Shown here: positions 9,947 to 28,438 of the stretch, in pieces
Numbering within the stretch: the first letter of the stretch is position 1
Layout: each line of letters opens with the position of its first letter
Assembly: GCA_942492995.1 (NCBI GenBank)
Contig: OW818653.1
Location: 780,001-812,000 of the forward strand
Source of the DNA: an uncultured Erysipelotrichaceae bacterium
Lineage (GTDB): Bacteria > Bacillota_I > Bacilli_A > Erysipelotrichales > Erysipelotrichaceae
Length of the DNA: 32,000 nucleotides
Direction: 5' to 3'
Notes under the pieces: model-generated
Databases searched by the model: none
The model's input: only the letters and a program-made list of their open reading frames with translations
What the model was told of the DNA's origin: nothing
Program-made: the position numbers and the translations under genes

Positions 9947-9964
9947 TAACTATTTATTGTTTAT
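9931..9964. repeat. exact 13-nt direct repeat ATTTATTGTTTAT x2 (offset 21 nt); candidate operator
   Basis: The copies lie at 9931-9943 and 9952-9964. The first overlaps the -35 box, and TTATTG-N5-CAATAA dyad symmetry lies between them. Confidence 0.5.
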
Positions 9965-12349: not shown

Positions 12350-12790
12350 ATGAAAAATGACTGGACCAAAAAGTTATTGAGTATCATTGGGATTACCATC
12401 GGAGCATTTATTGGATTTAATTTATCTTTTATGTTAGCTGCTGTTATAACATTAACCGTAGCGAAACTTACTGGACCTTTGGGTTATACAATAGGTCGAC
12501 TTATTTTCTTGGTTGTTATTTATCTTATTTTCGCACTAACTAAACAATTAAAAATTCCTGTATGGATTAAGGCAGCTGTCTTCACAATGCCAATGATTAG
12601 TAGCTTAATTTTAATTGGTGTTTATGGATATGGATTAGCTCAATGGATGGTACTTGGTGGTGGGGCATTATTTGTATTAGCTGTTCTATACTATCTATGG
12701 CGAAATAAGTGGGATTGGACCTATTACTATGCACTTGGATTTGTGAGTGTTGTTGCGGCGTATGTCATTATTGCAGGGATTGATATTTAA
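12350..12790 (+). CDS. hypothetical small integral membrane protein (about 4 TM)
   Basis: Track ORF 12305..12790. The preferred start is ATG 12350 (MKNDWTKKLL), 7 nt after AGGAGG. I recognise no family. Confidence 0.6.
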   Translation: MKNDWTKKLLSIIGITIGAFIGFNLSFMLAAVITLTVAKLTGPLGYTIGRLIFLVVIYLIFALTKQLKIPVWIKAAVFTMPMISSLILIGVYGYGLAQWMVLGGGALFVLAVLYYLWRNKWDWTYYYALGFVSVVAAYVIIAGIDI

Positions 12791-13547: not shown

Positions 13548-14483
13548 TTATTTTAAGACAAACATAAATAGTGGAATTATTAGTAACGTAAAAATAGTTG
13601 TAAGTGTTGTGACAATCGTCGCATACTCATAATCCGCTCCAGATTCCGCAGCTAATACAGTTGTGACAGTCATAGCTGGCATTGCGGATTGAATAAGAAA
13701 TACATTACGCATTAGTTCGGGTAATGTGATGATACTTGTTAAGAAATACACTAAAAGTGGAGAAATCAGAAATCGACTAATCAATATAAACGTCATTGAT
13801 TTATCCCAAACGACTTTCTTAAAATCAATCATATAAATGGTTATACCAATGTATAACATTGATAATGGTGTTAGTATATTCCCCATATATTTGCTTGTAT
13901 CCATCACAAACTTTGGAAGTGGTATTTCTAGAAATATAATAAGGATCGCAATTAGAAACGAGATTAATGGCACATTGAATATTTTCTTAAGATTATTCTT
14001 TGATATTAATTTCCCTTTTAAACCACCATCGCGACTAATTCCCCAAGCACCAATCGTCCAAAAGAAACTAACATTCACAATAAAATAGATAAACACATAA
14101 GGAATACTATCTGTACCATATAACGCTAAATTGATTGGAAGACCAACAAATAATGTGTTAGAAATTGAAACTGTTGATGAGAATATACCCCTACGATTTT
14201 CGGGAACTTTTAGTAGTTTCGCTAGTATGTAACCAAATATATACATAATTAACATCGAAGTGAATGGAATAATAAATCCACCTGATACTTCGATTAATTT
14301 TGATTTACTAAAGTTAGTAACTAAGTTAGAAATCATAAATCCAGGAACTGATATATTCACAACTATTTTAGAAAATAATGATGCGGTATCATGATTGAAC
14401 CATTTCTTATAGCTGAAGAATATACCGATTAATATCATTGCGATAATTGAAAATATACTTTGTAGAGAATCGAATATATTCAT
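13548..14483 (-). CDS. AEC (auxin efflux carrier) family transporter
   Basis: 311-aa protein with about 10 TM segments. The N-terminal SIIAMILIGIFFSYKKWFNHDTASLFSKIVVNISVPGFMISNL block is typical of the AEC / malate-permease-like family. Confidence 0.8.
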   Translation of the reverse strand: MNIFDSLQSIFSIIAMILIGIFFSYKKWFNHDTASLFSKIVVNISVPGFMISNLVTNFSKSKLIEVSGGFIIPFTSMLIMYIFGYILAKLLKVPENRRGIFSSTVSISNTLFVGLPINLALYGTDSIPYVFIYFIVNVSFFWTIGAWGISRDGGLKGKLISKNNLKKIFNVPLISFLIAILIIFLEIPLPKFVMDTSKYMGNILTPLSMLYIGITIYMIDFKKVVWDKSMTFILISRFLISPLLVYFLTSIITLPELMRNVFLIQSAMPAMTVTTVLAAESGADYEYATIVTTLTTIFTLLIIPLFMFVLK

Positions 14484-14489
14484 AAATAC

Positions 14490-15041
14490 TTACTTTCCAC
14501 CTGATAGTTGATAGTAATGATTTTCTCTAATTGTTTCTGTATTTACACCCAAAGATTCCGCAATCATAAAGGCAAATGGATATGGTGTTGCAGGTCCTTG
14601 ACTCGTAATAACGTTTTGATCCTCTACTGAAACTTCATGTTTAAATATTCCACCGATAAGCTTTTCTTCATATCCTGTATAGCCAGTTACTTTTTTACCT
14701 GTGATTACTTTCGAATCTGATAAAACGATTGTACCAGCACACATAGCCGTAACTTTTTTATTCTTCAGATCAAAATATTGAACCATTTCGATAACTTTAG
14801 GATTATCTCTAAGATTTTGACCTCCAGGTCTACCACCTGGTAAGACGATACAATCGTAATCTTTTACTACATCACTAAATGGTTTATCCCCTTTAATAGT
14901 TATATTTTGCATACCCTTTACTACCTCGTCGTTAAAGAAAAATGTATGACATGTTAATCCACATTCACGAAGAACTTCTACAATGATAAATGTCTCACTT
15001 TCTTCAAAACCTTCTGCCATTAGTACCGCGATTTTTTTCAT
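14490..15041 (-). CDS. DJ-1/PfpI family protein with the nucleophile-elbow Cys retained
   Basis: 183-aa ORF with MKKIAVLMAEGFEESE, VLPGGRPG and the nucleophile elbow KKVTAMCAGTIVL. Confidence 0.85.
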   Translation of the reverse strand: MKKIAVLMAEGFEESETFIIVEVLRECGLTCHTFFFNDEVVKGMQNITIKGDKPFSDVVKDYDCIVLPGGRPGGQNLRDNPKVIEMVQYFDLKNKKVTAMCAGTIVLSDSKVITGKKVTGYTGYEEKLIGGIFKHEVSVEDQNVITSQGPATPYPFAFMIAESLGVNTETIRENHYYQLSGGK

Positions 15042-15530
15042 TTAATTCACCTTCTTTACATCAAACGCATTATAGTAGACCATTCTTTGTTTAATCGGTT
15101 CACTATCAACTCTTAATAATTCTAAACAATGATAGATAAAAGCATAAGTTGTTGAGAAGCCTTTATTAAGCAAGATATTTTCTCGTACTGAAAATAACTC
15201 ATTCTCTAAAAGTGGTTTTGTATTAACGAGAGAAATTGAATCTCCCATTAAACCTACCCATTTTTTATGTTGGATTAAGTCATTTATCATTGATGAAATG
15301 GATGTTTTATGATTAAATCCACTTGGAATAATAAGCATGTCATATTCAAAAAAATCAGTATTCTCAAATCTTAGATTGGATAGTACTGTTATCTCATGTT
15401 TACCGTGTACTTCAATATCATCTAATGATATTATTCTACAATCAATTTCAGCTCTTCGCATGATATCAACTGTGAGTAATAATTCACTTTCTTCAAATCC
15501 ATTATCGATTAAAACAGCAACTTTTTTCAT
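15042..15530 (-). CDS. divergent DJ-1/PfpI-like protein lacking the conserved Cys
   Basis: 162-aa ORF opening MKKVAVLIDNGFEESE. The segment aligned to the nucleophile elbow reads KKWVGLMGDSISL, with Met in place of Cys. Its stop codon abuts the start codon of the downstream DJ-1 gene with a 0-nt gap. Confidence 0.7.
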   Translation of the reverse strand: MKKVAVLIDNGFEESELLLTVDIMRRAEIDCRIISLDDIEVHGKHEITVLSNLRFENTDFFEYDMLIIPSGFNHKTSISSMINDLIQHKKWVGLMGDSISLVNTKPLLENELFSVRENILLNKGFSTTYAFIYHCLELLRVDSEPIKQRMVYYNAFDVKKVN

Positions 15531-15602: not shown

Positions 15603-16370
15603 TTATTCTTTATTAAAATGATTATATTCTTGGGCAATTAAACTACTCACAAAAATAAGTTGATATGGATGTGAGATTTGATCCAATTTAGAATTAAAAC
15701 AGATGTTTTTATAGATATATGGATTTTCTTCACAGACGTTTCCTGAGATTAGATATATTTTAGGAATATTATTCAGATTCTTTGTGAAACGTAATCCTTG
15801 ATCAAAATATGCACCAGTATAGCTAAAAATTATGACTAAATCATTTTGGTTCGCATGTGATATGAATTCAAGTTGATCATTATAGGTTAACTTAACATTG
15901 ACTAACTTGCCTAACATCAATAAGTCTACTTGTAGATTAATCGCAGCACTTGACGCTTTTAACAAACCAAGTATCGTGACTTGTTTATATTGATGTATAT
16001 CTTTTACGAGTTCAAAAAGTACTCTAGTATCAAGTGTTTGTGCAACTTCATTAATGGATTCTTGAACCTTTGAAGCGTGTTCAAATGTTCTAATTTCATT
16101 ATCATTAGAATTTGATGCGACTTCAAACTTAAAGGTTTGATCATTTAAACTTTCTTTTAATTCGGAAAAATCATTTAAGCCAATATTACGACAAAAACGA
16201 GATATAGAACTATTGGATACATTACATTTCATCGCAAGTTCTGATATTGAGTCATTTTGAATATCATCTAAATGATTTAGAATATAGTACGCTATTTGAC
16301 TATCAGTTGTGTCATTTGGCTGACTCGCGATTTGTGTTAATAAAATAATCGATAGTTTATTGTATATCAT
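15603..16370 (-). CDS. MurR/RpiR-family transcriptional regulator (HTH + SIS domain)
   Basis: 255-aa ORF. The N-terminal HTH is SISELAMKCNVSNSSISRFCRNIGLNDFSELK. The C-terminal region is SIS-like (VTILGLLKASSAAINLQVDL...VIIFSYTGAY). Confidence 0.85.
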   Translation of the reverse strand: MIYNKLSIILLTQIASQPNDTTDSQIAYYILNHLDDIQNDSISELAMKCNVSNSSISRFCRNIGLNDFSELKESLNDQTFKFEVASNSNDNEIRTFEHASKVQESINEVAQTLDTRVLFELVKDIHQYKQVTILGLLKASSAAINLQVDLLMLGKLVNVKLTYNDQLEFISHANQNDLVIIFSYTGAYFDQGLRFTKNLNNIPKIYLISGNVCEENPYIYKNICFNSKLDQISHPYQLIFVSSLIAQEYNHFNKE

Positions 16371-16400: not shown

Positions 16401-17246
16401 TTATTTCAAATTTTTATTTAGAATCTTCCATCTCCAAATTAACATCCAGACGATTAACAACACATGTAATGTGTCATTTTCATTAAACCAGATATTGAAA
16501 TTAGAATACAAGAATGGACCTTGGTTAGAAAATAAGGCAATGAAATATGCAACATTTACACCTAAGAATAGTAGCCAAATAGTCCATAATCGTTTGTGCA
16601 AAGTATTGCTTAAATTCTTATAATTGATCCACATCATGATAATGATATTAGGACTCAGAAATAACAACATTCCTTCATATGAAATCATAAATTGGTTTGG
16701 TAGTACTATTCCAATACCTTGAAATAATGAGTATAATACAACACTTATTATTGCGTAATTCTGTAGATTATCCTGAACTTTTTTATTATTTATTAAATAA
16801 GAGTAAGCGACTAATAACGCATTAATACTAATTACAGTAAATGTCATATAGAGTAATTCTACCCAATTTGTGAAGGTACAATACTCCAAATTCGTACATT
16901 TCAAATAATATCCAAAAGCTTGGTAACTTAATCCGGCCAGAAAAGCACCAATTCCCCAAAATATAAAGTTAATCCCTAACCATACACTAAATTTATTCTT
17001 CTTATTTTTTAAATAATATAAACCCAAACCTACGGTGATGATTGCTAAAAGAAGGATAATGAACGTTGAAGTTGGTTGTTGGATGATTAGATTATTAAGT
17101 TTGATATAAGGATATTGAGAAAGAAACATATCACCTTTAATTAGAGGTAGTATAAGTAAACGATCAATTTGACTGAATTGAAATAAAATAATAAAGCTTA
17201 TGATAGAGAAAACTAATACCATTTTACTTTTCATTTTAAATGACAT
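16401..17246 (-). CDS. hypothetical polytopic membrane protein (about 8 TM)
   Basis: 281-aa hydrophobic ORF ending 30 nt upstream of the RpiR start, with no hairpin in between. I cannot name a family. Confidence 0.6.
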   Translation of the reverse strand: MSFKMKSKMVLVFSIISFIILFQFSQIDRLLILPLIKGDMFLSQYPYIKLNNLIIQQPTSTFIILLLAIITVGLGLYYLKNKKNKFSVWLGINFIFWGIGAFLAGLSYQAFGYYLKCTNLEYCTFTNWVELLYMTFTVISINALLVAYSYLINNKKVQDNLQNYAIISVVLYSLFQGIGIVLPNQFMISYEGMLLFLSPNIIIMMWINYKNLSNTLHKRLWTIWLLFLGVNVAYFIALFSNQGPFLYSNFNIWFNENDTLHVLLIVWMLIWRWKILNKNLK

Positions 17247-17336
17247 AGTTTCATCCTTTCGAAGATATTAACCTTATTTCAATTATAATGTTATCTTAAC
17301 TTATGTATATCAAATAATGAGCTATCATCAAATTAA

Positions 17337-17359
17337 AAGGTACAGAAAATCTGTACCTT
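17337..17359 (-). terminator. intrinsic terminator ending the Fe-S/HypA/membrane operon
   Basis: AAGGTACAG-aaaat-CTGTACCTT. On the minus strand it is followed by TTTTAATTT. It lies 10 nt after the stop of the 17370..18293 gene. Confidence 0.75.
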
Positions 17360-17369
17360 AGTAATTTTT

Positions 17370-18293
17370 TTATAAATTATTTGATTTAAGAATATCTAAA
17401 TAAGATTTTAAATCGACATACAACTCTTCTTTTAATGGATTACGTTTTGTCTTAATCATAAGATAAATCTGATACGCAAAGACTAAACCATTTGAAAGAA
17501 TAGATAGTATGCTTAATATTAACATCGGAGTTGTATTCAAGGTAGAGGTTATCGAGAAGAACGCTGTTGTGGAATAAGTAGGAAATGTCACAGAGAACAT
17601 GGCGAATAATGCCAAGATTTGAGCTCTGTGTTGAAGCCATACACCTTTAGAAGTGAATAATCCTGCAATTAGAGATAAAGACAGAATGATTACACCGGCA
17701 TAGAATGCTCTATTAGGAATGCAATTATAGACATAAGATATATTCCAGATACAATACGCCACAACATAGAACCACTGCATATCTGGCCAAACCATATCTT
17801 TAAATTTATTATTAGATACTCTGATTCCAACCCATCCTGTAATGGTTAAAATTGATAGAATCCCAGCAATACCATTAAAAATATTCCAAATTCCTCCCTG
17901 TATATACAAACCATTGACAAGCTCATTGGATAAAGAGGAACATTGGAAATCTCTAAGAACAGCCTCGAAAATATTTACAGCAAGGATTAATGCGGGAAAC
18001 ACTAACATGAATCGATTCTTCTGTAATTTCGGGATAAAACGTAATGCCATAAATCCGATAACACCCGCTAGTGCGGAATAGGTTTTTATCCATGCGAACC
18101 AGTTACCAGACACGGTACTAGATTCACCTGTCTTTGGCCAAACAAATAAAGTGAGGATGATTGGTAAAAGAATATAGATAATAATCGATAATATTCTAGA
18201 TCTTCTTGTTGCTTCATTTAATATAAATAAACCAATTGCAAGTATGAGTGCAGATAGTAGGTTAATGATGGTGTAATTTTCAAAAAAGAACAT
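17370..18293 (-). CDS. uncharacterised polytopic membrane protein, paralogue of 21355..22182
   Basis: 307-aa hydrophobic ORF. It shares motif blocks with the 275-aa protein: WFAWIKTYS/WFRWAKTIS, LILAVNIFEAVLRDF/LILNIAEASLKDF, NIFNGIAGILSILTI/NMFNAISGVILCITI and CIWNISYVY/VTWNAAFVY. Confidence 0.7.
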   Translation of the reverse strand: MFFFENYTIINLLSALILAIGLFILNEATRRSRILSIIIYILLPIILTLFVWPKTGESSTVSGNWFAWIKTYSALAGVIGFMALRFIPKLQKNRFMLVFPALILAVNIFEAVLRDFQCSSLSNELVNGLYIQGGIWNIFNGIAGILSILTITGWVGIRVSNNKFKDMVWPDMQWFYVVAYCIWNISYVYNCIPNRAFYAGVIILSLSLIAGLFTSKGVWLQHRAQILALFAMFSVTFPTYSTTAFFSITSTLNTTPMLILSILSILSNGLVFAYQIYLMIKTKRNPLKEELYVDLKSYLDILKSNNL

Positions 18294-18308
18294 ATTAATC
18301 TCCTTTGT

Positions 18309-18653
18309 TTATTGCCTTACAATAATCTCTTTAATGAGAAATTCTCTTCCTCGTATGATCGTAAAATTGGATTTTGAGCATCGAGGACAATGATTATTAT
18401 TTTCGACTAAATTATAGATAAATTCACATTCATTACATTTCCCTATACCAGGATTGATCTCTATCTCGAGATTCGTATTCCTTAATCGAGAATTTTCGAC
18501 TGCGATAGGATAAACGTCTTTAATGTACTTAGGATATACACTGGATAAAGCTCCAATCTCTAGCACAACTGTTTCTATCTGATCAATGTCATTTGATGTC
18601 ATGTAATTTTCAAGTTGTTTAACGATTTGAATAACAATTCCTAACTCATGCAT
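18309..18653 (-). CDS. hypA: HypA-type nickel metallochaperone-like protein
   Basis: 114 aa, beginning with MHE (the HypA N-terminal Ni-binding motif). It has the Zn site C73-x2-C76...C89-x2-C92 (GKCNECEF...HCPRCS). The start lies 2 nt after the upstream stop codon. Confidence 0.75.
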   Translation of the reverse strand: MHELGIVIQIVKQLENYMTSNDIDQIETVVLEIGALSSVYPKYIKDVYPIAVENSRLRNTNLEIEINPGIGKCNECEFIYNLVENNNHCPRCSKSNFTIIRGREFLIKEIIVRQ

Positions 18654-18655
18654 TG

Positions 18656-21337
18656 TTATTTGCCTAAAATGCTTGTCTTAATATTTTTCGCGACAATTCT
18701 AACTTTTCGTTTTATGACGTGTTTTAAGACAATTGGTTTTAAATCTGGGAAATCAACCCCAACCGCATCATATTTACGCACGAGCTTAATCGCATCAAAC
18801 TTACATCTGGTTGTGCATGCCCCACATCCTACACACATGAATTCATCTACAACAGAAATACCACACGATAAACAACGCATCGTTTCTTTTTTAACTTGTT
18901 CTTCGGTTAGTACTCCACGAGGATCTTTAAAATCTCCTTTAATATTATCTAAATGAAGAGTATAAACACGTTCACGACTAACTTCATCATAACCACTGAA
19001 ATCAATATTGTTTTTATCTAGAGAGACAAAGTATTTATTATTTCGTCCGTAGACTAAACTTTGACCACGATTGACAAATCGATGAATTGAAATTGCTGCT
19101 TCTTTACCGTGTGATATAGCATGAATAGCATACTTAGGTCCTGTCGCGACATCTCCTCCCGCAAATATATCACTTACACTGGATTGTAACGTTTGAGGAT
19201 CAACACTGATGGTTTGATTTGGGTTTAATTTAACATCTATTCCATCAAATAGATTTCCCCATTGAATTTGTTGACCTACGGAAAGTAATACTGTATCAGC
19301 TTCAACTGTCATACAATCATTCTCGTCATAGATTGGATTAAATCGTTTGTTTTCATCGAGCAATTGAATGCATTTTTTGAATTCTACACCGACAACTTTC
19401 CCATCTTTTACAAGGATTTTCTTAGGACCGTATTCATTATGTAATACGATTCCTTCATTCAAAGCTTCATGAACTTCATCTTGAAGTGCTGGAATCGTAT
19501 CTCTTGATTCTAAACAGAACATACTGACACCGATATTATTTAAACGTACTGCAGTACGTGCGACATCAATCGCTACATTACCACCACCAATTACAACCAC
19601 TTTGCCAAGATTCATATCTTTTTGAATTTTTGTATTTCGCAAGAACTCAACGCCTGTTATAACATTTTCAGCATTTCCGTTTTCAATATTAATTTTTCTT
19701 CCATCTTGTGCACCAATCGCAACGTAGAATGCTTTAAATCCTTCTACTCTAAGTTGATCAATGGTAATATCTTTCCCAACATTTACACCAGTTTTAAATT
19801 CAATACCTAATTCTCTTAGAATTTCAATTTCAGCTTTGATAACATTTTTCTGAAGTCTAAACTCTGGAATACCATAATGCAACATTCCACCTAATTCTTT
19901 TTGTTTTTCAAATACAGTAACTTTATACCCTTCAATTGCTAAGAAGTACGCACAGGTTAACCCTGAAGGACCTGCTCCAATTACCGCAATCTTTTTATCG
20001 TAATTATGTTTAATAATTGGTACAAAGCGACTTTCTTCATGTAAATCAAGTTCTGCAATAAACTTCTTTACATCATCAATCGCAACAGAACAATCTAGAT
20101 TATTACGTGTACAAGCACTTTCACATAACGCAGGACAAACACGTCCACAAACTGCAGGAAATGGATTTTCTTTTTTAATCATTTCTAATGCTTCACGATA
20201 TATTCCTTGCGATGCAAGTTTTAAGTAACCTGGTATAGATATATGAGCTGGACACTCTGTCTTACATGGAGCAGTACCACTCTCTAAAGATTCTTTACGA
20301 TTCACACGATAATCTGGATTCCATTTATCTGCACCCCATTCTGTATCGTATGGGAATTCAGTTCTAACTTGATTCCTAATTTCATTGATTGTACATAGTT
20401 TTTGACCCAAACGAATCGCATTGGTTGGACATACTTCTACGCATTCACCACAACCTACACACTTTTCTGGATCAATGGTACTCACATAATTAGAACGAAC
20501 CATGTCTGGGTTATTGTACATACCTGCAGCACGCATCGCATAACATGAACAACCACAACAATTACATATGGCATGGGTATGTCCTTCACCCTCTGTATTA
20601 GGGATTTGATGCATTAAACCATCTCGTTCAGCTCTTTGAATAATATCAATCGCATCTTCTTTGGTGATTTCTCGTCCGCGACCAGTTCGAATGTAATATT
20701 CAGCCGCATCACCTAATTGGATACACATATCTTCTTTAAGATGACCGCAACCTTGATTCATTTCTTCACGTGATGTACGACAAGAACAATCTGATACTGA
20801 AAGTATTCTTGCCTCGTTAATATACTTCGAAACTTCTTCATAAGAAGCTCTTCTTGTATCACCATTAATCGCTGTTTCAATTGGAATAACTCGCATCAAA
20901 CCATGACCCATGGGAATATTACCCGCCGCAACAGGATTTCTCAAAAGTCCATAATCATCAAAAGCTTTACCAATTTGAGGATACTTTTTTACATTCTCTT
21001 TATTATTTACAACCATTTCAAAGATACCTGGAACCCAAGTTTCATACCAGAATGTATCTCCATCATCTTCACGTTTAATGGTTGCGACTCCTGCCATGGC
21101 TAAATCCCATAATAATTCCTTTGTTCTTTCAATAGACTTGCCACATTTCTTCGCAATATCTTCTGCTTTTAAATGCACGCGATACTCAAGTGCTAATGCG
21201 ACTTCTGCCATTTGTTCTGATACTACTTTTTCTAAAAGTTTAAACCGAGGATCTTCTTCAGTTAATCCTTTTTTAGTCCCCATTTTTGTCATCGATACTT
21301 TATTAACAAACTCTAATAGTTTTACTTGATCAGTCAT
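18656..21337 (-). CDS. multidomain Fe-S flavoprotein oxidoreductase (Cys-rich N-domain + ferredoxin + GltD-like NAD(P)H/FAD module + C-terminal ferredoxin)
   Basis: 893-aa ORF. Cys patterns include CSCR-x9-C-x7-C, ICNCCGCSC and CVGCGECVEVCP. GltD-type clusters (CKTECPAH...VCGRVCPALCESAC) and dinucleotide folds (IAVIGAGPSGL, VVVIGGGNVAIDVA) follow. The C-terminus has CLSCG...CVGCGACTTRC. Confidence 0.8.
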   Translation of the reverse strand: MTDQVKLLEFVNKVSMTKMGTKKGLTEEDPRFKLLEKVVSEQMAEVALALEYRVHLKAEDIAKKCGKSIERTKELLWDLAMAGVATIKREDDGDTFWYETWVPGIFEMVVNNKENVKKYPQIGKAFDDYGLLRNPVAAGNIPMGHGLMRVIPIETAINGDTRRASYEEVSKYINEARILSVSDCSCRTSREEMNQGCGHLKEDMCIQLGDAAEYYIRTGRGREITKEDAIDIIQRAERDGLMHQIPNTEGEGHTHAICNCCGCSCYAMRAAGMYNNPDMVRSNYVSTIDPEKCVGCGECVEVCPTNAIRLGQKLCTINEIRNQVRTEFPYDTEWGADKWNPDYRVNRKESLESGTAPCKTECPAHISIPGYLKLASQGIYREALEMIKKENPFPAVCGRVCPALCESACTRNNLDCSVAIDDVKKFIAELDLHEESRFVPIIKHNYDKKIAVIGAGPSGLTCAYFLAIEGYKVTVFEKQKELGGMLHYGIPEFRLQKNVIKAEIEILRELGIEFKTGVNVGKDITIDQLRVEGFKAFYVAIGAQDGRKINIENGNAENVITGVEFLRNTKIQKDMNLGKVVVIGGGNVAIDVARTAVRLNNIGVSMFCLESRDTIPALQDEVHEALNEGIVLHNEYGPKKILVKDGKVVGVEFKKCIQLLDENKRFNPIYDENDCMTVEADTVLLSVGQQIQWGNLFDGIDVKLNPNQTISVDPQTLQSSVSDIFAGGDVATGPKYAIHAISHGKEAAISIHRFVNRGQSLVYGRNNKYFVSLDKNNIDFSGYDEVSRERVYTLHLDNIKGDFKDPRGVLTEEQVKKETMRCLSCGISVVDEFMCVGCGACTTRCKFDAIKLVRKYDAVGVDFPDLKPIVLKHVIKRKVRIVAKNIKTSILGK

Positions 21338-21354
21338 ATTTTCCCTTTCAATTC

Positions 21355-22182
21355 CTAATATCCATAGTATTGAGCTGTATTTTTAACAACATAATCTTTA
21401 TTTCTTAACTTAAAGAACCAATAGATTAAATAAGCAATATGTAAGCCTAAGTTAATCGCACCCCAAACATAAAGAAATGTTTCATTATACCAAGCAGAAG
21501 AATCCATTATTGGCGTAAAAATGTCATAACACGCTCGTATGAGTAAATGAACCGCTAAGGTATACACTCTACCCATCAACCATAGATCCGTTCTTTTTTT
21601 AGTAAACATCCATATTTCCGGTATAAGAAGAATGCATAAACTAGACGCAAAATAACTAATATTTTCTGCATAAACAAATGCCGCATTCCAAGTTACATAT
21701 AACAAACACCACGCCAATGGTAAGTCTGCGATAAGTTCCGCAAATGAATTCTTTTGGTCATTATTACCAATTCTCCAATGTTTATTCGCTAAAGGAATCG
21801 TAATGCATAGAATGACTCCACTTATCGCATTAAACATATTCCCTAAGGTAAAATCTTTTAAACTCGCTTCCGCTATATTTAGGATTAATACTGCATAGAG
21901 AATCCACATTGGCCCCTGTTTCTTAAATGAAAGAAGTAGAAGTGGATGATGTCCATCATTTGATATTCTTACAAATGTTAAGAATAATAATGGAATAAGA
22001 ATACTAATTGTCTTTGCCCATCTGAACCATGAACTTAAATTGAGAAACCATAATGGTATGGTCATCAACGCAATGATTGAAAACCATTTATAAAACCCTT
22101 GTTTCTCTCTTGTGTACTCCAAAAATAGATACAAAAACAACATATACACTGCCATTGACACGAAAATACTTAAATTAGACAT
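21355..22182 (-). CDS. uncharacterised polytopic membrane protein, paralogue of 17370..18293
   Basis: 275-aa hydrophobic ORF and the first gene of the operon. The RBS AGGAGA lies 8 nt upstream of the ATG. Motif blocks are shared with the 307-aa protein (listed under that feature). Confidence 0.7.
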   Translation of the reverse strand: MSNLSIFVSMAVYMLFLYLFLEYTREKQGFYKWFSIIALMTIPLWFLNLSSWFRWAKTISILIPLLFLTFVRISNDGHHPLLLLSFKKQGPMWILYAVLILNIAEASLKDFTLGNMFNAISGVILCITIPLANKHWRIGNNDQKNSFAELIADLPLAWCLLYVTWNAAFVYAENISYFASSLCILLIPEIWMFTKKRTDLWLMGRVYTLAVHLLIRACYDIFTPIMDSSAWYNETFLYVWGAINLGLHIAYLIYWFFKLRNKDYVVKNTAQYYGY

Positions 22183-22197
22183 ATTATCTTTCTCCTA

Positions 22198-22213
22198 AGT
22201 GAATGATTTCACA
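22198..22213. promoter_or_regulatory. palindrome AGTGA-N6-TCACA (Crp/Fnr-like dyad) at the predicted transcription start of the operon
   Basis: The sequence reads aAGTGAATGATTTCACAa. It lies between the candidate -10 box (22217-22222) and the RBS (22191-22196). Confidence 0.3.
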
Positions 22214-22216
22214 AAT

Positions 22217-22245
22217 ATCTTAACGAATGTAACATAGCTTAACAA
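22217..22245 (-). promoter_or_regulatory. candidate promoter of the membrane/Fe-S/HypA operon
   Basis: On the minus strand: TTGTTA (22245-22240), a 17-nt spacer and TAAGAT (22222-22217). Confidence 0.4.
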
Positions 22246-22274
22246 TAGATTATCCCTCTATCTCCTTAGCAAGA

Positions 22275-22303
22275 TTGTCCTATTTTTATAAATAAAATAT
22301 AAT
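22275..22303 (+). promoter_or_regulatory. candidate promoter of the AraC-family gene
   Basis: TTGTCC (22275-22280), a 17-nt spacer and TATAAT (22298-22303), 27 nt upstream of the ATG. Confidence 0.45.
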
Positions 22304-22330
22304 TTGTGATAAAATGGACAAGATAAAACT

Positions 22331-23317
22331 ATGATACAAACATGTATAGATGAATTTGAATCCCTTGATCTTCCTTTCTCTACTTTCATATGCACATTTT
22401 TAGATCATGAAACTGAAGCACATGATGAAATGGAGTTTATTTGGGTGATTGATGGAAATGTCACCATAGTATGTGAAAAGAAAACATATGAATTATGTTC
22501 TGATAATGTTTTTATGATTTATATCAATCAAGTACATTCAATCAAGTCTTCATCTAATTCACTTATGTTTTGTTTTAGATTGAAAAAACAATATATATTA
22601 GATCATCATCTACGATTTGATAAACTACCCTCTCCTAATCGAATATTTTCATTTCAAGAACTCACTCAAAAGTATCATGCAGTTCCACTGATTATTTCTC
22701 AAATTATTTTATTATTAAAAACTCAAAATCCGAATCCCAATATTCGTTATAAGTTAATTGGTTATTACAATATGTACATTTATGATTTATATAGTGTACG
22801 TTTAAAAGAACGATATTTAGATGTTAAAAAGAAGAATTATGATATTTATTTAATTCGATTTCATACGGTTATTGATTACATTAATAAAAATTTTAAAGAA
22901 CCAATTTCGCTAAATACATTGGCCAATTTAGTTAATATCAGTCCCTATCGTTTATCTCATTTTATTCAAGATCGACTCGGTATTTCATTTCAAGAATACC
23001 TTCAAAATATTCGTTTTGAGCATGCATTAATCGAGCTAAAAAATTCAGATTTACCCATTAGTAAGATTGTTAGAAACAGTGGATTTAGTGATTCAAAGTA
23101 TCTCAATCAATTAATGAAGAAAAAGTTTCATGTGACCGCTTTAAAATATCGTTCTTTGATGAAGATTAGTGAGAATGAGGAAATATATGATTTTAGTTAT
23201 CCTAAGTTATTAGAAGAATTGTCGGTAAGACTTCATCAAATCGATAAAGGTTTATATATGCGCGATACTTTTGGTTTGAAAGAAAATGTGAACATTATTC
23301 ATAACTCTTCAGATTAA
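22331..23317 (+). CDS. AraC-family transcriptional regulator (cupin-like sensor + HTH)
   Basis: 328-aa ORF. The N-terminus is cupin-like (HDEMEFIWVIDGNVTIVCE). The C-terminal double HTH includes ISLNTLANLVNISPYRLSHFIQDRLGISFQEYLQNIRFEHA and IVRNSGFSDSKYLNQLMKKKF. Confidence 0.85.
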   Translation: MIQTCIDEFESLDLPFSTFICTFLDHETEAHDEMEFIWVIDGNVTIVCEKKTYELCSDNVFMIYINQVHSIKSSSNSLMFCFRLKKQYILDHHLRFDKLPSPNRIFSFQELTQKYHAVPLIISQIILLLKTQNPNPNIRYKLIGYYNMYIYDLYSVRLKERYLDVKKKNYDIYLIRFHTVIDYINKNFKEPISLNTLANLVNISPYRLSHFIQDRLGISFQEYLQNIRFEHALIELKNSDLPISKIVRNSGFSDSKYLNQLMKKKFHVTALKYRSLMKISENEEIYDFSYPKLLEELSVRLHQIDKGLYMRDTFGLKENVNIIHNSSD

Positions 23318-23384: not shown

Positions 23385-24794
23385 ATGAATAATAAAACAC
23401 TAATTTCTCATCAATTGCCACATTTTGATGTCATTGTGATTGGGTCAGGTTTTGCAGGATTAACAGCCGCAATAGAATGTAAGATGAATGGTGGAAATGT
23501 CATTGTATTAGAGAAAATGAAGGCCATTGGTGGTAATTCAGTTATTAGTGATGGAGGAATTGCGGCCCCAAATACACCTGAACAAAAATCACTTCAAATT
23601 GATGATTCAGCTGAGTTAATGTTTGAAGATATGATGAAATCTGGTGAAGGATTAAATAATCCTAATATTACAAAAATGGTATGTGATAACGCAAAAGATG
23701 CATATCAATGGTCTAAAGATGTATTAAATGTCAAATATATGTCTAGAGTTGATATCTTTGGAGGACATAGTGTTCCACGGTGTTACTCACCAGACCCACT
23801 TTCTGGATATACGATTATTCAAAAGATGAAACAGAAATGCGATGAACTTGGCATTGAGATAAAACTACAAGCGTTTGTGGAATCCTTTATCTTAACTAAC
23901 AATCGTTTTGTTGGTGTAAATTTTGATTCAAACTATTCTATTGATCCAACTCATCAAAAAGAACTTTCAACATTATACGCAAACAAAGGCGTAATCATCG
24001 CAACCGGTGGTTATGCGGCAGATGCTAAGTTCATCCAAAACCATGTGCCAAACTTCCCTTCTTCATTTCTAACCACAAATAAAAAAACAACCAGTGCGGA
24101 AGTTCTTGAAACGTGTATGAGTATCCATTGTGCTACAGCTCATTTGGATCAGATTCAATGGATGCCATGGACTACACAAAATGAAAGTGGTTATGGTATT
24201 GGAGGACTATTCGGTGATTATATCGTTTCATCAAATGGTATTTTAATTGATTGTAAAAATGGATTAAGATTTGTGAATGAATGTGGTAATCGAAAACACG
24301 TAACACATGAAATTCTTAAAGTGAAGAATGTTATTGGATTAGTTGATTCTGTGAGTGTTATTAAGTCTGGATGGAATTTAGATCGTGCATTAAAAATGAA
24401 AATTGTTCAAGAATTCAATTCAATTGATGAAGTATCAAACTTCTATTCAATCCCTATTAAGCCGTTATTAAACACAATAGATTCCTATAACACAAATCTA
24501 TTATCAAAAAAATTAGATACATTGGGTAAAGTGTATGAACCATGGATGACGCCTATTCAAAATCCACCGTATTACGCAATGTCGATTACTCCAAAAACAC
24601 ATTACAGTTTAGGTGGATTAGTTACAGATATTAACACTAATGTACTCGATTTAAATAATAATCCTATTCCTGGATTATACGCGATTGGTGAAGTTACAGG
24701 TTTAACCCATGGTGCGAATCGTTTAGGGAGTTGTTCAGTTACAGAGTGTCTTGTGATGGGACGAATTGCAGGTAAAAAGATACTCGAAGTATAA
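23385..24794 (+). CDS. FAD-dependent oxidoreductase of the fumarate reductase / flavocytochrome-c flavoprotein family, cytoplasmic
   Basis: 469-aa ORF with FDVIVIGSGFAGLTAAIE, LEKMKAIGGNSVISDGGIAAPNT, HYSLGGL and GLYAIGEVTGLTHGANRLGSCSVTECLVMGRIAG. It has no signal peptide and no heme or FMN-binding extension. Confidence 0.8.
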   Translation: MNNKTLISHQLPHFDVIVIGSGFAGLTAAIECKMNGGNVIVLEKMKAIGGNSVISDGGIAAPNTPEQKSLQIDDSAELMFEDMMKSGEGLNNPNITKMVCDNAKDAYQWSKDVLNVKYMSRVDIFGGHSVPRCYSPDPLSGYTIIQKMKQKCDELGIEIKLQAFVESFILTNNRFVGVNFDSNYSIDPTHQKELSTLYANKGVIIATGGYAADAKFIQNHVPNFPSSFLTTNKKTTSAEVLETCMSIHCATAHLDQIQWMPWTTQNESGYGIGGLFGDYIVSSNGILIDCKNGLRFVNECGNRKHVTHEILKVKNVIGLVDSVSVIKSGWNLDRALKMKIVQEFNSIDEVSNFYSIPIKPLLNTIDSYNTNLLSKKLDTLGKVYEPWMTPIQNPPYYAMSITPKTHYSLGGLVTDINTNVLDLNNNPIPGLYAIGEVTGLTHGANRLGSCSVTECLVMGRIAGKKILEV

Positions 24795-24797: not shown

Positions 24798-25622
24798 TTA
24801 CTTAACCACTTCAATCTGTATGTGACTTGTATCATACATAACTTTCGCATGATTTACTTTAATACATTTTACATCTTGTACTAATCCAGATAATTTGGAT
24901 ATTTTCTTACGTAAGATGGTTCCGTTTCGATATACACTTCCATTTTCTTGAGAGAAATACTCATTCTCTACTTCAATGTGATATTTATGTTTTAACTGCG
25001 TATCTGTTAATATTTCACCTTTAAGATACTCACCTTCTACCCAAACAATTAATTGATATGTTTGATTCGTATTATTCTTAAATCGATAGTCTAGATAATT
25101 AAAGAATATGGAAGTCCCTGTCCCAAAAGGTATTTGACGTCCAAAATCCGGGAATAAATCAATTCCATCATGGTGATGATGTTCGATAATATCTAAGTCA
25201 GTGTGTAAGATTAACCAATGGATTAGATTAGTAAATTGACACATTCCTCCTCCAATTGCTTGAGAGGTTTGTCCGTTCTTTATTGTTAAACCTTCTTTAT
25301 AGCCATCTTTCGCTTTACATTTACCAACTAATTCCCAGAAAGAAAAAACTTCATTCGGTTTTATTAATATATGTGATATTTTTGGGGCCGCAATTGATAA
25401 GTTAATTGCTTTGTTTTCCTGAAGTTGTAAGTTCACATTACCAAGTTTGCGTTTGATGAGTGAGTTGTGTTTATATACACTGTACTTTAAACGAATTATT
25501 TGTTTAGTCTTACTAAATGTATTTGGATTTAATAGATTTTTAAAATGACGTAAATAAATCTCCTTATAAACGGAGATTGTGTACGTAGTATGATTGATTT
25601 CACTAAAAAGTTTTCGCCCCAT
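24798..25622 (-). CDS. VanW-family protein
   Basis: Track ORF 24798..25640. The VanW core GGGMCQFTNLIHWLILHT is present. The preferred start is ATG 25622 (MGRKLF), preceded by GGGGGAAA. Confidence 0.8.
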   Translation of the reverse strand: MGRKLFSEINHTTYTISVYKEIYLRHFKNLLNPNTFSKTKQIIRLKYSVYKHNSLIKRKLGNVNLQLQENKAINLSIAAPKISHILIKPNEVFSFWELVGKCKAKDGYKEGLTIKNGQTSQAIGGGMCQFTNLIHWLILHTDLDIIEHHHHDGIDLFPDFGRQIPFGTGTSIFFNYLDYRFKNNTNQTYQLIVWVEGEYLKGEILTDTQLKHKYHIEVENEYFSQENGSVYRNGTILRKKISKLSGLVQDVKCIKVNHAKVMYDTSHIQIEVVK

Positions 25623-25710
25623 ATATTTCCCCCGAAACATAGTTATAGTTTATCATTGAAATAGTAATTGAACATAGAATTTAATATTAAGTATAAAGAA
25701 AGAGGTTCTA

Positions 25711-26553
25711 ATGATGAAAAGTCATACGTTTCAATCCATTAAAGCAGGATATCGCCAAAGTGTTGGACTTAGATCAGATGGGTCAGTTATCGCTTGTGGT
25801 GATAATAAATATGGACAATGTGATGTAAGTAATTGGCTACATATTACGTCTATTTCAATTGCGAATGCACATACAGGTAATTCACATACCTTAGGCTTAA
25901 AGAATGATGGGACTGTTGTATCAACTGGATGGAACGTATATGGTCAGTGTGATGTGCAGGATTGGAAAGACATTGTGGCAATTGAGACTGGTTGGCGTAC
26001 TTCTTTTGGGATTACGCTAGATGGTCATGTAAGATCAACGGGTCGTAATCACGAGGAACAATGTAATGTAGGTGATTGGACTAATGTGGTAATGATTTCG
26101 GCTGGTGATTGGCATACGATTGGATTAACAACGGATGGAAAACTTTTAAGTACTGGGAATAATATTTATGGTCAATGTAAGATACATGATTGGTTAAACA
26201 TAAAATCATTATCTGCAGGCTATTTACATACACTTGGATTAAGGAAAGATGGGACGGTTGTATCGACTGGTATTAATACATACCATCAATGCGATGTCAA
26301 CGATTGGGTCACTATTATTCGTATATCAAGTGGTAGTCATCATTCTGTTGGGTTAAAAGAAGATGGGACAGTTGTTGCGTGTGGTCTAAATGATGATGGA
26401 CAATGTGATGTTCAATCTTGGACGAATATTGTGTCTATTTCTGCAGGTTGTTCACATACCTTAGGGTTAAAAAATGATGGCAATGTTATATCAACTGGAA
26501 ACAATAAATATAATCAATGTGACACAAACAATTGGACTAATATAAAAATCTAA
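25711..26553 (+). CDS. RCC1-like repeat protein (predicted 7-bladed beta-propeller)
   Basis: 280-aa ORF built from seven about 38-aa units of the form SAGxxHTLGLKxDGTVVSTGxNxYGQCDVxxWxNIV. The RBS is AGAGG. There is no signal peptide. Confidence 0.85.
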   Translation: MMKSHTFQSIKAGYRQSVGLRSDGSVIACGDNKYGQCDVSNWLHITSISIANAHTGNSHTLGLKNDGTVVSTGWNVYGQCDVQDWKDIVAIETGWRTSFGITLDGHVRSTGRNHEEQCNVGDWTNVVMISAGDWHTIGLTTDGKLLSTGNNIYGQCKIHDWLNIKSLSAGYLHTLGLRKDGTVVSTGINTYHQCDVNDWVTIIRISSGSHHSVGLKEDGTVVACGLNDDGQCDVQSWTNIVSISAGCSHTLGLKNDGNVISTGNNKYNQCDTNNWTNIKI

Positions 26554-27034: not shown

Positions 27035-28438
27035 TTATTCTTCCGCAATCATTTTACCGATAATACTAACTGAAATAGTATTATAAATTACTCCAAAGTT
27101 ATCAACGACAGACTGATGCATTTTCTGAACAACACTAGATATTTCATCTTTAGTTGTTATTTCTGTATACGATTCTAGTATTATTTTCTCAATAATTTCA
27201 TCTAAATATGGACGTGATGAGATTAATGAATTAAATTCTTCTTCGCTACTAATTCTAAAATATACTTGTACTTGATTACCATCAGGTGTGATTACTGTGG
27301 GTCCAAATTCCGTAAATGAGTAAGTGTCTAAATGGACATATTTTTCATCTGATGTTTCAATTAATAAATCAATGTCATCTTCGTTCGTTAGAACTTGTTT
27401 TATTGTCAGCTCTTTAATATCATCATAGCTTAAATCATTTCGGTCGGTTACAGAGCTTATTTTGTTATATTCTAAGAAATATTCCAATGAAGTCTTATCG
27501 TTGATAACTTGCGTAATTGGTTCACCAGTATCTGGTGTTGAAGTTTCCAGAATTTCAACCTTTGTTACTTCCATGTTGATATTCATTTTTCGCATTGTCT
27601 GATTTAAAATTTCGATTATTCTATTTTCCGATAGATCTTCTAGCGTTTCAATTGTTTCAAATTGGTCAAATGCTTCCTCAATAAATGATTTCTCGTATAG
27701 CTGTTGTTCAATGTTTAATACATCTAAAACGGTTAACAGTTCCTGATTTTTAATTCTATAATCAAAAAGAAAATTAAATGTTGATCTGTCCTCATTCAAA
27801 TCGATTCGTTCAATAAAGTAATTCATTTGGTTTGAATAATTACTACTTTTACTCGCGAAACTTTTGGTTAAATCAGTATAGTAATAAGTGATTTTATGGT
27901 TCGACGGATCTCCGATGAATTCTTTATAACTCATATCAAAATAATTATTTAAAGTTTCAAATTCAGAGTAAAATTGATTCGCAAATGTATCCTTTACTTG
28001 ATAGATTTGAACTGGTTTAGAATAATTATAATTATGATTTTCAAATTCAAGTAGATTACCAAGTATCAAGTCATCTTGATAGCTAACATTAAAGTATCGA
28101 TCATATGTAGTCGAACATTTTGATGTGAATGTTTCTATATCAGTATCTGAATTATTTAGTGTAATAAAAGTGGATCCAAAGATCGCTGGATGATACACAA
28201 AACCATATTCCTTCTCTACTACACTGCACGCCAATACATTATCTTCTTCAAGAAGAAATGTAGTGTATTGGTTGTTCGAACTTAATTCTTTGATATCTGG
28301 ATTTTCAAGAAATATTATTTCTCCAAAAACTTTTGCGACATCCACTGGTGTAAATCGATATTGTTTTGTATAACCAATGATCAATATTATAATTACAATT
28401 AAAAGAATATTACGTATTAGTTTTAAACTTCGTTTCAT
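27035..28438 (-). CDS. hypothetical N-terminally membrane-anchored, acidic extracytoplasmic protein
   Basis: 467-aa ORF with a single N-terminal TM (LKLIRNILLIVIIILIIGY). The remainder is rich in D/E/N/Y/F/I/T/S, and I recognise no motif. The start overlaps the upstream stop as ATGA. Confidence 0.6.
   Translation of the reverse strand: MKRSLKLIRNILLIVIIILIIGYTKQYRFTPVDVAKVFGEIIFLENPDIKELSSNNQYTTFLLEEDNVLACSVVEKEYGFVYHPAIFGSTFITLNNSDTDIETFTSKCSTTYDRYFNVSYQDDLILGNLLEFENHNYNYSKPVQIYQVKDTFANQFYSEFETLNNYFDMSYKEFIGDPSNHKITYYYTDLTKSFASKSSNYSNQMNYFIERIDLNEDRSTFNFLFDYRIKNQELLTVLDVLNIEQQLYEKSFIEEAFDQFETIETLEDLSENRIIEILNQTMRKMNINMEVTKVEILETSTPDTGEPITQVINDKTSLEYFLEYNKISSVTDRNDLSYDDIKELTIKQVLTNEDDIDLLIETSDEKYVHLDTYSFTEFGPTVITPDGNQVQVYFRISSEEEFNSLISSRPYLDEIIEKIILESYTEITTKDEISSVVQKMHQSVVDNFGVIYNTISVSIIGKMIAEE

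Follow-up and report, generated by a model that had tools for sequence, protein, structure and literature searches.

To our knowledge, the enzymes with which anaerobes hydrogenate unactivated C=C bonds are largely unidentified, a question that concerns both the biohydrogenation of fatty acids in gut and rumen and the reduction of isoprene and terpenes in sediments. Among the closest described systems is the five-gene isr operon of Acetobacterium wieringae ISORED-2 (isrA, hypA, hypB, a ferredoxin gene whose product has an IsrA-N-like domain, and a second hypA), which encodes the putative isoprene reductase IsrA (VUZ27132.1; PMC10134865). In A. wieringae, which has no [NiFe]-hydrogenase, isoprene induced IsrA, one HypA, HypB, and the ferredoxin more strongly than any other protein, and the assignment of IsrA as isoprene reductase is proteomic and transcriptomic only (PMC10134865). 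In P. schinkii, hypA and hypB were upregulated 373- and 585-fold with isoprene. Other homologues within clade 9 share 47–49% identity with IsrA, and only IsrA and its relatives in Pelotomaculum have a 26-residue segment at IsrA positions 756–782 (PMC10134865). The neighbours of clade 9 oxidoreductases include HypA (73%), HypB (56%), and DUF5692 (40%), a published network of gene neighbourhoods covering 988 homologues names HypA, HypB, TetR, and DUF5692, and the homologue clusters of A. woodii include an oleate hydratase (Kronen et al. 2023, PMC10134865).

The window analyzed here is a stretch of 32,000 nucleotides from an uncultured Erysipelotrichaceae bacterium. An earlier note on this DNA had described a compact four-gene operon on the minus strand, and all four ORFs were recovered at the same coordinates with intergenic gaps of 17, 2, and 15 nt (table 1). 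Each of the four genes has hundreds of conserved homologues, and all four are real genes. Shine-Dalgarno-like sequences were found upstream of genes 1, 2, and 4 (AGGAGA ahead of the first gene, inside the divergent intergenic region), whereas the start codon of hypA follows 2 nt after the upstream stop codon, which suggests that hypA is probably translationally coupled to the flavoprotein gene.

Table 1. Features of the operon and its flanking regions, with positions counted within the window
Feature	Position	Strand	Basis
Polytopic membrane protein, short divergent member of DUF5692, 275 aa	21355..22182	-	hhalign, orthologue Pfam scores
IsrA-like ("clade 9") Fe-S flavoprotein, 893 aa	18656..21337	-	Pfam, NCBIfam, invariant Cys
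HypA-type nickel metallochaperone, 114 aa	18309..18653	-	PF01155
Canonical DUF5692 membrane protein, 307 aa, ~9 transmembrane helices	17370..18293	-	PF18948
Intrinsic-terminator-like hairpin, 10-bp stem, T-rich tail, 10 nt past last stop codon	17337..17359	-	
AraC-family regulator, divergent from operon	22331..23317	+	HTH_18, HTH_AraC, AraC_binding domains
Divergent intergenic region, 148 nt	22183..22330	.	Sequence read

Judged by described architecture and motif positions, the 893-aa protein resembles the IsrA-like clade 9 oxidoreductases. It follows their layout of ~900 aa with an unassigned N-terminal region, Fer4 (residues 287–309), Fer4_20 (353–432), an FAD/NAD(P) domain (Pyr_redox_2, 449–744), and a C-terminal cluster (Cys within 822–845), and these domains bear out its earlier description as a soluble NAD(P)H-type Fe-S flavoprotein. 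IsrA and the window protein have in common the unannotated N-terminal domain, four canonical [4Fe-4S] sites, a directly adjacent hypA, and the Cys-rich site called cluster V, whose two CxC motifs are located at C184-x-C186 and C258-x-C260 in the window protein and at 180/182 and 254/256 in IsrA. An alignment of 12 homologues, down to 49% identity, displayed nine invariant Cys in the N-terminal domain (184/186/197/205/258/260/261/263/265) and 16 further invariant Cys that were assigned to the canonical clusters. The N-terminal part (residues 1–285) consists of a winged-helix and a Cys-rich domain. No Pfam family matched the residues before ~258–285 except for a weak, sub-threshold match to TFIIE_alpha (winged-helix), and the PDB sequence search covered only residues 355–835, with no chain over the Cys-rich domain. 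A model of the N-terminal domain of moderate quality (pLDDT 69.7) gave weak winged-helix matches for the first ~100 residues but no informative fold match, and none for the Cys-rich part. The locus differs from the isr operon in that only the isrA-like gene and one hypA of the five-gene set are present; no cobW/HypB gene, second hypA, or ferredoxin gene (including one with the N-domain-like region) was found in the window, which carries two DUF5692 genes and a divergent AraC gene instead.

The identification of the 114-aa protein as HypA held up: it matches PF01155 with 97.7 bits and carries the MHE nickel-binding N-terminus (M1-H2-E3) as well as two CxxC pairs (C73/C76 and C89/C92). The fold family, the MHE N-terminus, and the structural zinc CxxC pairs are common to the HypA/HypB systems of [NiFe]-hydrogenase and urease. 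In contrast to these systems, profile searches within the window revealed no hydrogenase, urease, or hypCDEF genes, and the score on TIGR00100, the equivalog for hydrogenase-maturation HypA, was 67.8 bits and thus under the cutoff of 88.1. The flavoprotein is the presumed client of this HypA, and we infer its nickel dependence from the adjacency of HypA and HypB genes in the family. The IsrA-like family is widespread, with relatives in Clostridium scindens, Mediterraneibacter, Oscillibacter, Roseburia-related DUF5692 carriers, Izemoplasmatales, and spirochaetes, and it apparently relies on a nickel chaperone in a setting other than that of hydrogenase, urease, or CODH.

The earlier note regarded the first and last genes as encoding paralogous membrane proteins of no assignable family; the paralogy was upheld and a family was found for both. 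The 307-aa protein is a full-length DUF5692 protein (PF18948, 364.8 bits against a gathering threshold of 27 bits, model positions 2–302 of 304). The 275-aa protein has no match to PF18948, even at E = 10, but its orthologues P0295 and P0317 score 39–40 bits, over the Pfam threshold. The two proteins align by BLASTP over 206 aa (E = 2e-9, 24% identity) with the previously noted motif blocks in register, and a profile–profile comparison of the short and long families with hhalign gave a probability of 98.1% (E = 1e-13, 228 columns). By these comparisons, the 275-aa protein is classified as a divergent DUF5692 homologue and a paralogue of the 307-aa copy. DUF5692 proteins are 275–352 aa long with ~9 helices and share invariant residues across subfamilies (R30, K70, R85, N107, E110, N140, D171, Y180, N184, Y189, and R223) that resemble a catalytic site or one for a polar head group; the conserved charged residues lie in transmembrane helices. 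The AF2 model of the 307-aa protein (pLDDT 86.2, pTM 0.85) had no fold match in the PDB by Foldseek (best E = 0.1, TM 0.21), and neither a sequence-profile search of the PDB nor the transporter families of Pfam and NCBIfam produced a match to DUF5692.

For the contig look-ups, P0017, a 92% relative, stood in for the window's own protein P0001. The AraC, short DUF5692, and IsrA-like genes were adjacent in all ten loci of this subclade, whereas HypA was adjacent in seven, HypB in five, and a long DUF5692 gene was nearby in six. The subclade core consists of the divergent AraC gene, the short DUF5692 gene, and the IsrA-like gene, and HypA, HypB, and the long DUF5692 gene are variable. That the genes are conserved neighbours was borne out. 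The divergent AraC gene lies beside the short DUF5692 gene in loci L081, L082, L163, L164, L165, L001, L002, L003, and L005, and Fusibacter carries its long DUF5692 paralogue ~40 kb away. Three of these loci (L001, L163, and L165) lack an adjacent hypA, which, like the absence of hypB from the window, counts against nickel dependence. Within a human-gut DUF5692 subfamily the arrangement (HypB)-IsrA-HypA-DUF5692 was found in 24 out of 80 contigs. The longest contig of at least 27 short-type and at least 14 long-type DUF5692 proteins equals in size that of an IsrA-like protein, which suggests that these proteins share contigs. Conservation of the operon neighbours extends across phyla. A neighbourhood with HypA, HypB, and DUF5692 had already been published (PMC10134865), and in that respect the system is not undescribed as the earlier note proposed; its sense of unexplained biology was fair, since the clade 9 family is biochemically uncharacterised.

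A scan for partners of DUF5692 in other genomes identified 144 operon-like partners at 56 species loci. The most frequent families were DAO/NAD_binding_8 (19), Amino_oxidase (15), Pyr_redox_2 (13), TetR (13), and FNR-type reductases (10), and only three partners were ABC transporters. DUF5692 elsewhere is mostly found beside flavoenzymes acting on lipid double bonds (homologues of the fatty-acid isomerase PAI, CrtI-like, and FNR-like) together with TetR. The 420-aa partner is homologous over its full length to PAI, the polyunsaturated fatty-acid isomerase of Cutibacterium acnes (PDB 2b9w; E = 1.3e-68 and 7e-58), and in 14 species loci DUF5692 has such a full-length homologue as operon partner. 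The 510-aa partner is CrtI/CrtD-like. The PAI-like gene is clustered with IsrA-like, HypA, and HypB genes at two loci: L054 (Clostridium) has the order HTH–PAI-like–DUF5692–HypB–IsrA-like–HypA on one strand, and in L072 the IsrA-like gene is split in two, with a geranylgeranyl-reductase-like gene between its parts. In about 70 of 80 species loci, DUF5692 has neither HypA nor an IsrA-like gene as a neighbour, and it may have a more general role. The window itself contains no fatty-acid genes (hydratase, PAI-like isomerase, lipase, or acyl-CoA ligase), so the argument for a lipid substrate rests on other genomes.

What is added here is a substrate hypothesis, lipids with double bonds, based on the finding that DUF5692 and IsrA-like genes are repeatedly linked to genes for PAI-like, CrtI-like, geranylgeranyl-reductase-like, and FNR-like enzymes. 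The operon would encode an NAD(P)H-linked Fe-S flavoprotein, matured by HypA, for the hydrogenation of an unactivated C=C bond of a lipophilic substrate with the assistance of DUF5692, a reading from sequence and gene context that we hold with roughly even confidence. The IsrA-like flavoprotein would be cytoplasmic, and the co-translated HypA would probably insert nickel into its N-terminal Cys-rich site. Electrons would pass from NAD(P)H to FAD and through a chain of [4Fe-4S] clusters to this unusual site, where a probably conjugated C=C bond would be reduced; as substrate, a fatty acid (unsaturated or conjugated) or an isoprenoid-like lipid is most plausible. The two DUF5692 paralogues, perhaps paired, would handle the same substrate at the membrane, either handing it over to the soluble enzyme or converting it beforehand, for example by double-bond isomerisation, and the divergent AraC protein probably activates the operon when the substrate is present. 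Confirmation would establish a new class of nickel enzyme and give a function to a DUF found commonly in human gut bacteria. The window operon and L054 are compact natural operons suited to expression.

A narrower version of this reading is that the DUF5692 proteins are the long-sought membrane polyunsaturated fatty-acid isomerases, that the IsrA-like protein is a nickel reductase of conjugated dienes or alkenes, and that the operon forms a complete biohydrogenation module; we consider it tentative and, in this specific form, somewhat unlikely. Membrane polyunsaturated fatty-acid isomerase activity has been known in Butyrivibrio since 1967 and is genetically defined as the Bifidobacterium BBI. 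Three reports describe BBI/LAI of Bifidobacterium breve as a membrane linoleic acid isomerase of ~330 aa (993-bp gene) with nine predicted helices (PMC9636412, PMC11812354, PMC12048573). By description alone, DUF5692 resembles it in being polytopic, of similar size, and with ~nine helices; BBI/LAI acts on an unsaturated fatty acid, and DUF5692 adjoins fatty-acid isomerase and reductase-type genes. The resemblance is a lead only, and no DUF5692 protein was found in Bifidobacterium by a representative search of 1.84 billion proteins, cluster look-ups, and a metagenome scan. The literature searched contained no gene of the IsrA-like family assigned to a conjugated linoleic acid reductase and no link of biohydrogenation or this reductase to HypA, IsrA, or nickel. 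If true, the combination of isomerase and reductase would make the IsrA-like enzymes a new nickel class that hydrogenates unactivated C=C bonds.

The IsrA-type architecture and the HypA partner are also compatible with an operon whose electron acceptor would be isoprene, butadiene, or a volatile terpene, and terpenes and other hydrocarbons were proposed as substrates of the homologues by Kronen et al. This is improbable for the window given the absence of HypB, the second HypA, and the isr-specific ferredoxin, and DUF5692 lies outside the isr operon (PMC10134865). Furthermore, the flavoprotein is colinear with 11 homologues across residues 700–830 (an alignment that does not include IsrA) and lacks an extra segment like that at IsrA 756–782. 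Acetobacterium strains in which only homologues are present do not reduce isoprene (PMC10134865), and the substrate is therefore probably unlike that of IsrA. The host is Erysipelotrichaceae-like with a genome of ~2 Mb, which likewise speaks against isoprene.

Two membrane subunits flanking a soluble redox protein, together with the charged residues in their transmembrane helices, could also form a membrane anchor or ion-translocating subunit that couples the reduction to energy conservation or quinone redox chemistry, and isoprene reduction has been suggested to be energy-conserving (PMC10134865). Such a role appears unlikely: DUF5692 is missing from the isr operon (PMC10134865) and also partners the PAI-like isomerase, which catalyzes no net redox reaction. 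DUF5692 offers no haem or Fe-S ligands, the flavoprotein has its own NAD(P)-binding domain, and the distance of the long paralogue in Fusibacter points the same way.

The earlier note also considered a metal-handling module. In such a module, the DUF5692 proteins would import nickel or another metal to feed HypA. Nickel-enzyme operons often include a dedicated nickel permease, and many loci combine DUF5692 with HypA and HypB. The NiCoT, HupE/UreJ, and CbiM/NikM permeases carry conserved His/Asp-rich metal-binding signatures in their transmembrane helices, whereas no conserved His, Cys, or Met was found across 82 DUF5692 sequences, the invariant polar residues being R, K, E, D, N, and Y. The lack of conserved His or Cys makes a nickel-transporter role unlikely. 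Most DUF5692 copies lie away from HypA and IsrA, the commonest partners (PAI-like, CrtI-like, and FNR-like flavoenzymes and TetR) have no known nickel link, and the AF2 model is unlike any solved transporter. DUF5692 was rejected as a nickel transporter, and the metal-handling module as a whole is very unlikely.

Residues 349–862 of the flavoprotein strongly match GltD/NfnB-type families (NF009410, its best NCBIfam score, 471.8 bits; PDB 9bov, E = 3e-102), and residues 355–835 are homologous to the Fer4_20 two-cluster plus Pyr_redox_2 modules of NfnB, GltD, and dihydropyrimidine dehydrogenase (PDB 5jca, 9bov, 8oh5, and 1gt8). That the protein is an ordinary member of these groups (glutamate synthase small subunit, YgfK, or AegA) with incidental neighbours is nonetheless scarcely tenable: no NCBIfam score reaches its curated cutoff (516 for NF009410, with all equivalogs far below), the ~285-aa N-terminal domain with its nine invariant Cys is outside those families and any PDB chain, the additional ferredoxin-type clusters and the HypA partner set the protein apart, and the neighbours are kept across phyla.

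The preferred reading, an operon for the hydrogenation of a lipophilic substrate, includes regulation by the AraC protein, which is the probable operon regulator. The divergent intergenic region must contain the promoters of both the operon and araC. The promoter proposed at 22245-22217 (TTGTTA-17-TAAGAT) matches only 8 out of 12 consensus positions, and 35 promoter-like sites were observed in the region compared with 40.2 expected from shuffles; the element is therefore not above chance. A scan of the minus strand found no terminator inside the operon, and the terminator described in the earlier note at its downstream end was recovered with stem and T-rich tail.

The operon in the window is a variant of a kind of gene set that has been described but not characterised, consisting of an IsrA-like Fe-S flavoprotein, HypA, two DUF5692 membrane-protein paralogues (one short, one long) and an AraC regulator. 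All four minus-strand ORFs claimed by the earlier note were found, separated by the gaps of 17, 2 and 15 nt that it had described. Genes 1, 2 and 4 each have a Shine-Dalgarno-like sequence in front of them, and the hypA start codon lies 2 nt past the stop of the upstream flavoprotein gene. The terminator was recovered as a hairpin whose 10-bp stem is followed by a T-rich tail, and a terminator scan found no minus-strand terminator inside the operon. The proposed promoter (TTGTTA-17-TAAGAT) matches just 8 out of 12 consensus positions and a scan of the region found 35 promoter-like sites where 40 were expected from shuffles; it was therefore given no weight.

Features of the operon and its surroundings in the window
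Feature	Coordinates	Strand	Product
ORF	12305-12790	+	161 aa
Auxin-efflux/SBF-type permease gene	13548-14483
Two tandem genes	14490-15530	-
RpiR-family regulator gene	15603-16370
Polytopic membrane protein gene	16401-17246	-	281 aa
Terminator hairpin	17337-17359
Long DUF5692 gene	17370..18293	-	307 aa
hypA	18309..18653	-	114 aa
IsrA-like flavoprotein gene	18656..21337	-	893 aa
Short DUF5692 gene	21355..22182	-	275 aa
Proposed promoter	22245-22217
AraC gene	22331-23317	+
Flavocytochrome-c-type soluble FAD reductase gene	23385-24794	+
VanW-like gene	24798-25640
RCC1-type repeat protein gene	25711-26553	+	280 aa
ORF	27035-28438	-	467 aa

IsrA is a putative isoprene reductase of 901 aa from Acetobacterium wieringae, with four canonical [4Fe-4S] sites, an FAD/NAD(P) domain, an unannotated region of ~270 residues at the N-terminus and CxC motifs at 180/182 and 254/256 within a proposed Cys6 "cluster V" (PMC10134865). 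Compared by architecture and motif positions, the window flavoprotein is a near position-for-position match to IsrA. The isrA gene is encoded alongside two hypA genes, hypB and a ferredoxin gene, and the cluster of the A. woodii homologue includes an oleate hydratase (PMC10134865); the window operon differs from the isr operon in lacking HypB and the isr ferredoxin. In a 2026 preprint IsrA still has the status of a hypothesis, and hypA is reported to be up 373-fold and hypB 585-fold with isoprene. No member of the IsrA-like family has been biochemically characterised, and an isoprene-type reductase, as the match to IsrA might suggest, is a less well supported reading of the window enzyme than the general model discussed below.

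The core of the flavoprotein is of the GltD/NfnB type (Fer4_20 and Pyr_redox_2), sequence matches in the PDB are confined to residues 355-835, and all NCBIfam scores fall under the curated cutoffs. No Pfam family scores above threshold for the ~285 residues at its N-terminus, which have no relative of solved structure, and the AF2 model of the domain (pLDDT 69.7) yielded weak winged-helix matches only. The domain carries nine invariant Cys (184, 186, 197, 205, 258, 260, 261, 263 and 265), two CxC motifs among them. An ordinary GltD-like enzyme, as the core would have it, is a less well supported reading of a protein with this Cys-rich domain. The product of hypA is HypA (PF01155, 97.7 bits), with MHE at its N-terminus and two CxxC pairs, at 73/76 and 89/92, and scores 67.8 bits against the hydrogenase-HypA equivalog, below the cutoff of 88.1 bits.

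A literature search for DUF5692 found Kronen et al. 2023 (PMC10134865) as the sole paper that mentions the family. In its neighbourhood network of "clade 9" (988 homologues) HypA is given 0.73, HypB 0.56, DUF5692 0.40 and TetR 0.21. The association of the flavoprotein with HypA and the membrane proteins, which the earlier note had taken for a candidate undescribed system, was thus already on record. The four-gene neighbourhood is conserved in part. Among ten loci examined from the window protein's own subclade (≥66% identity; the window, L081, L082, L163, L164, L165, L001, L002, L003 and L005), a divergent AraC gene, the short DUF5692 gene and the IsrA-like gene are present in all ten; hypA is adjacent in seven (exceptions L001, L163 and L165), the long DUF5692 gene is adjacent or ≤5 kb away in six, and hypB is adjacent in five. 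In Fusibacter the long paralogue lies ~40 kb off. At least 27 short-type and at least 14 long-type DUF5692 proteins have a longest contig equal in size to that of an IsrA-like protein. Sizes that recur in this way across the three lists of homologues point to more cases of co-location.

A third DUF5692 subfamily, common in human gut Firmicutes (Oscillibacter, Mediterraneibacter faecis, Clostridium scindens, Gemmiger, Pygmaiobacter and Eubacterium), is likewise linked to IsrA-like genes: its gene comes immediately after (HypB)-IsrA-like-HypA in 24 out of 80 metagenome loci, often with a GntR/FCD regulator near. On the basis of the subclade and gut-subfamily neighbourhoods, the four-gene bracket of the window is one lineage's variant of a partnership that is conserved broadly. 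In the close relative L001 (positions 6361-10924; long DUF5692 79% identical) the short DUF5692 gene, the IsrA-like gene (911 aa) and the long DUF5692 gene leave no space for hypA among them, so HypA is not always encoded in the cluster. The Oscillibacter-like human gut contigs L083-L096 (GC ~0.62) carry, ~1.7 kb upstream of DUF5692 and on the other strand, a hypB-like gene, and no IsrA-like gene was seen on them.

The first and last gene products are homologous, as the earlier note had concluded from shared motif blocks, which align in BLASTP (E 2e-9, 24% identity over 206 aa); comparison of the two family profiles gave 98.1% probability and E 1e-13 over 228 columns. The note had been unable to assign them to a family, but the last gene product is a full-length DUF5692 protein (PF18948, 364.8 bits). 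The first has no Pfam match itself, its orthologues reach the PF18948 threshold (39-40 bits), and it represents a distinct short subfamily, 66-94% conserved in Erysipelotrichaceae, Izemoplasmatales, Fusibacter and others. An AF2 model of DUF5692 (pLDDT 86.2, pTM 0.85) has approximately nine membrane helices and no significant match among solved structures. The residues invariant in both subfamilies (R30, K70, R85, N107, E110, N140, D171, Y180, N184, Y189 and R223) are polar and not metal-binding, and no His or Cys is conserved across the two. Two cluster representatives, P0414 and P0423, have Arg/Pro-rich C-termini that do not align with the family and appear to be frameshifted calls made on high-GC contigs, the intact versions having 344 aa.

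A survey of DUF5692 with one genome per species gave 80 loci in many phyla, including aerobes and facultative organisms (Paenibacillus, Cryobacterium, Vagococcus and Listeria ilorinensis), and an IsrA-like gene lies within 10 kb in only ~10 of these. The 144 same-strand, closely spaced genes in 56 loci were compared with Pfam and include DAO/NAD_binding_8 (19), Amino_oxidase (15), Pyr_redox_2 (13) and TetR (13) proteins, FNR-type reductases with a 2Fe-2S domain (10) and ABC transporters (3). A 420-aa Amino_oxidase partner, present in 14 loci, is a full-length homologue of the polyunsaturated fatty-acid isomerase (PAI) of Cutibacterium acnes (PDB 2b9w; E 1.3e-68 and 7e-58), and a 510-aa partner is CrtI/CrtD-like. 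The order remote DUF5692 paralogue, CrtI-like, FNR-like, DUF5692 recurs in 11-12 loci, which share with the window operon two DUF5692 paralogues on either side of soluble flavoenzymes.

Several loci join these partners to the IsrA-like family. A Clostridium locus (L054) has the order HTH–PAI-like–DUF5692–HypB–IsrA-like–HypA, and in L018, L029 and L076 the CrtI/FNR/DUF5692 module stands beside IsrA-like–HypA. A Clostridium MAG (L072) has a PAI-like gene and a split IsrA-like gene, with a 390-aa geranylgeranyl-reductase-like FAD protein encoded between the halves and HypA, HypB and DUF5692 after them. Of the two halves, the C-terminal flavoprotein part (575 aa) precedes the N-terminal Cys-rich part (394 aa) (L072:3758-7957), and the split suggests that they are separable modules. 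Common to these contexts is chemistry on the C=C bonds of lipophilic compounds. The analysis adds this comparative evidence, in which DUF5692 and the IsrA-like family are both linked with enzymes of lipid double bonds, and it gives a directly testable biohydrogenation hypothesis.

To the observed operon structure, homologies, conserved Cys and HypA motifs and conserved neighbourhoods a general model can be fitted, which we consider about evenly balanced between right and wrong. HypA, perhaps helped by HypB from elsewhere in the genome, would load nickel into the Cys-rich N-terminal site of the flavoprotein; electrons would pass from NAD(P)H through FAD and the [4Fe-4S] clusters to this site, which would hydrogenate an unactivated C=C bond, probably a conjugated one, in a lipophilic substrate. 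The DUF5692 pair would present or pre-isomerise the substrate at the membrane and AraC would sense it. The narrower proposal of an unsaturated fatty acid as the substrate is tentative and rather doubtful. Together with the genomic contexts, the DUF5692 residue pattern fits either a site that binds a lipid bearing a carboxylate or a cofactor-free catalytic site. A respiratory membrane anchor, with the pair flanking a redox protein, is a less well supported role. So is a nickel importer beside HypA, against which both the polar, non-metal-binding invariant residues and the genomic contexts of DUF5692 argue.

A suggestive parallel for a membrane protein acting on fatty-acid double bonds is the linoleic acid isomerase (BBI/LAI) of Bifidobacterium breve, the likeness to DUF5692 lying in the description of the protein and not in a sequence comparison. 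BBI/LAI is a membrane protein of nine predicted helices encoded by a gene of 993 bp (~330 aa), whose deletion abolished the formation of conjugated linoleic acid and whose expression in L. plantarum conferred it (PMC9636412, PMC11812354, PMC12048573).

Directly downstream of the AraC gene and on the same strand lies the gene of the FAD reductase (TIGR01813, 404.7 bits, above cutoff). L081, a 92% relative, has this gene too, together with an HI0933-like flavoprotein, and in L163 an OYE-type ene-reductase adjoins the equivalent AraC gene, so that the C=C reductases under AraC control may be a broader group. Just past the operon terminator, the 281-aa membrane protein has a single match, to DUF6962 (21.8 bits), which falls below threshold, and its gene keeps the same position in L081. 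The two tandem genes that follow the RpiR-family regulator gene, and which the permease gene adjoins, have DJ-1/PfpI-family proteins as their L081 counterparts. The ORFs of 467 and 161 aa match nothing in Pfam at E 1e-5. The RCC1-type protein, whose gene adjoins the VanW-like gene, contains six repeats (RCC1_2, 204.5 bits).
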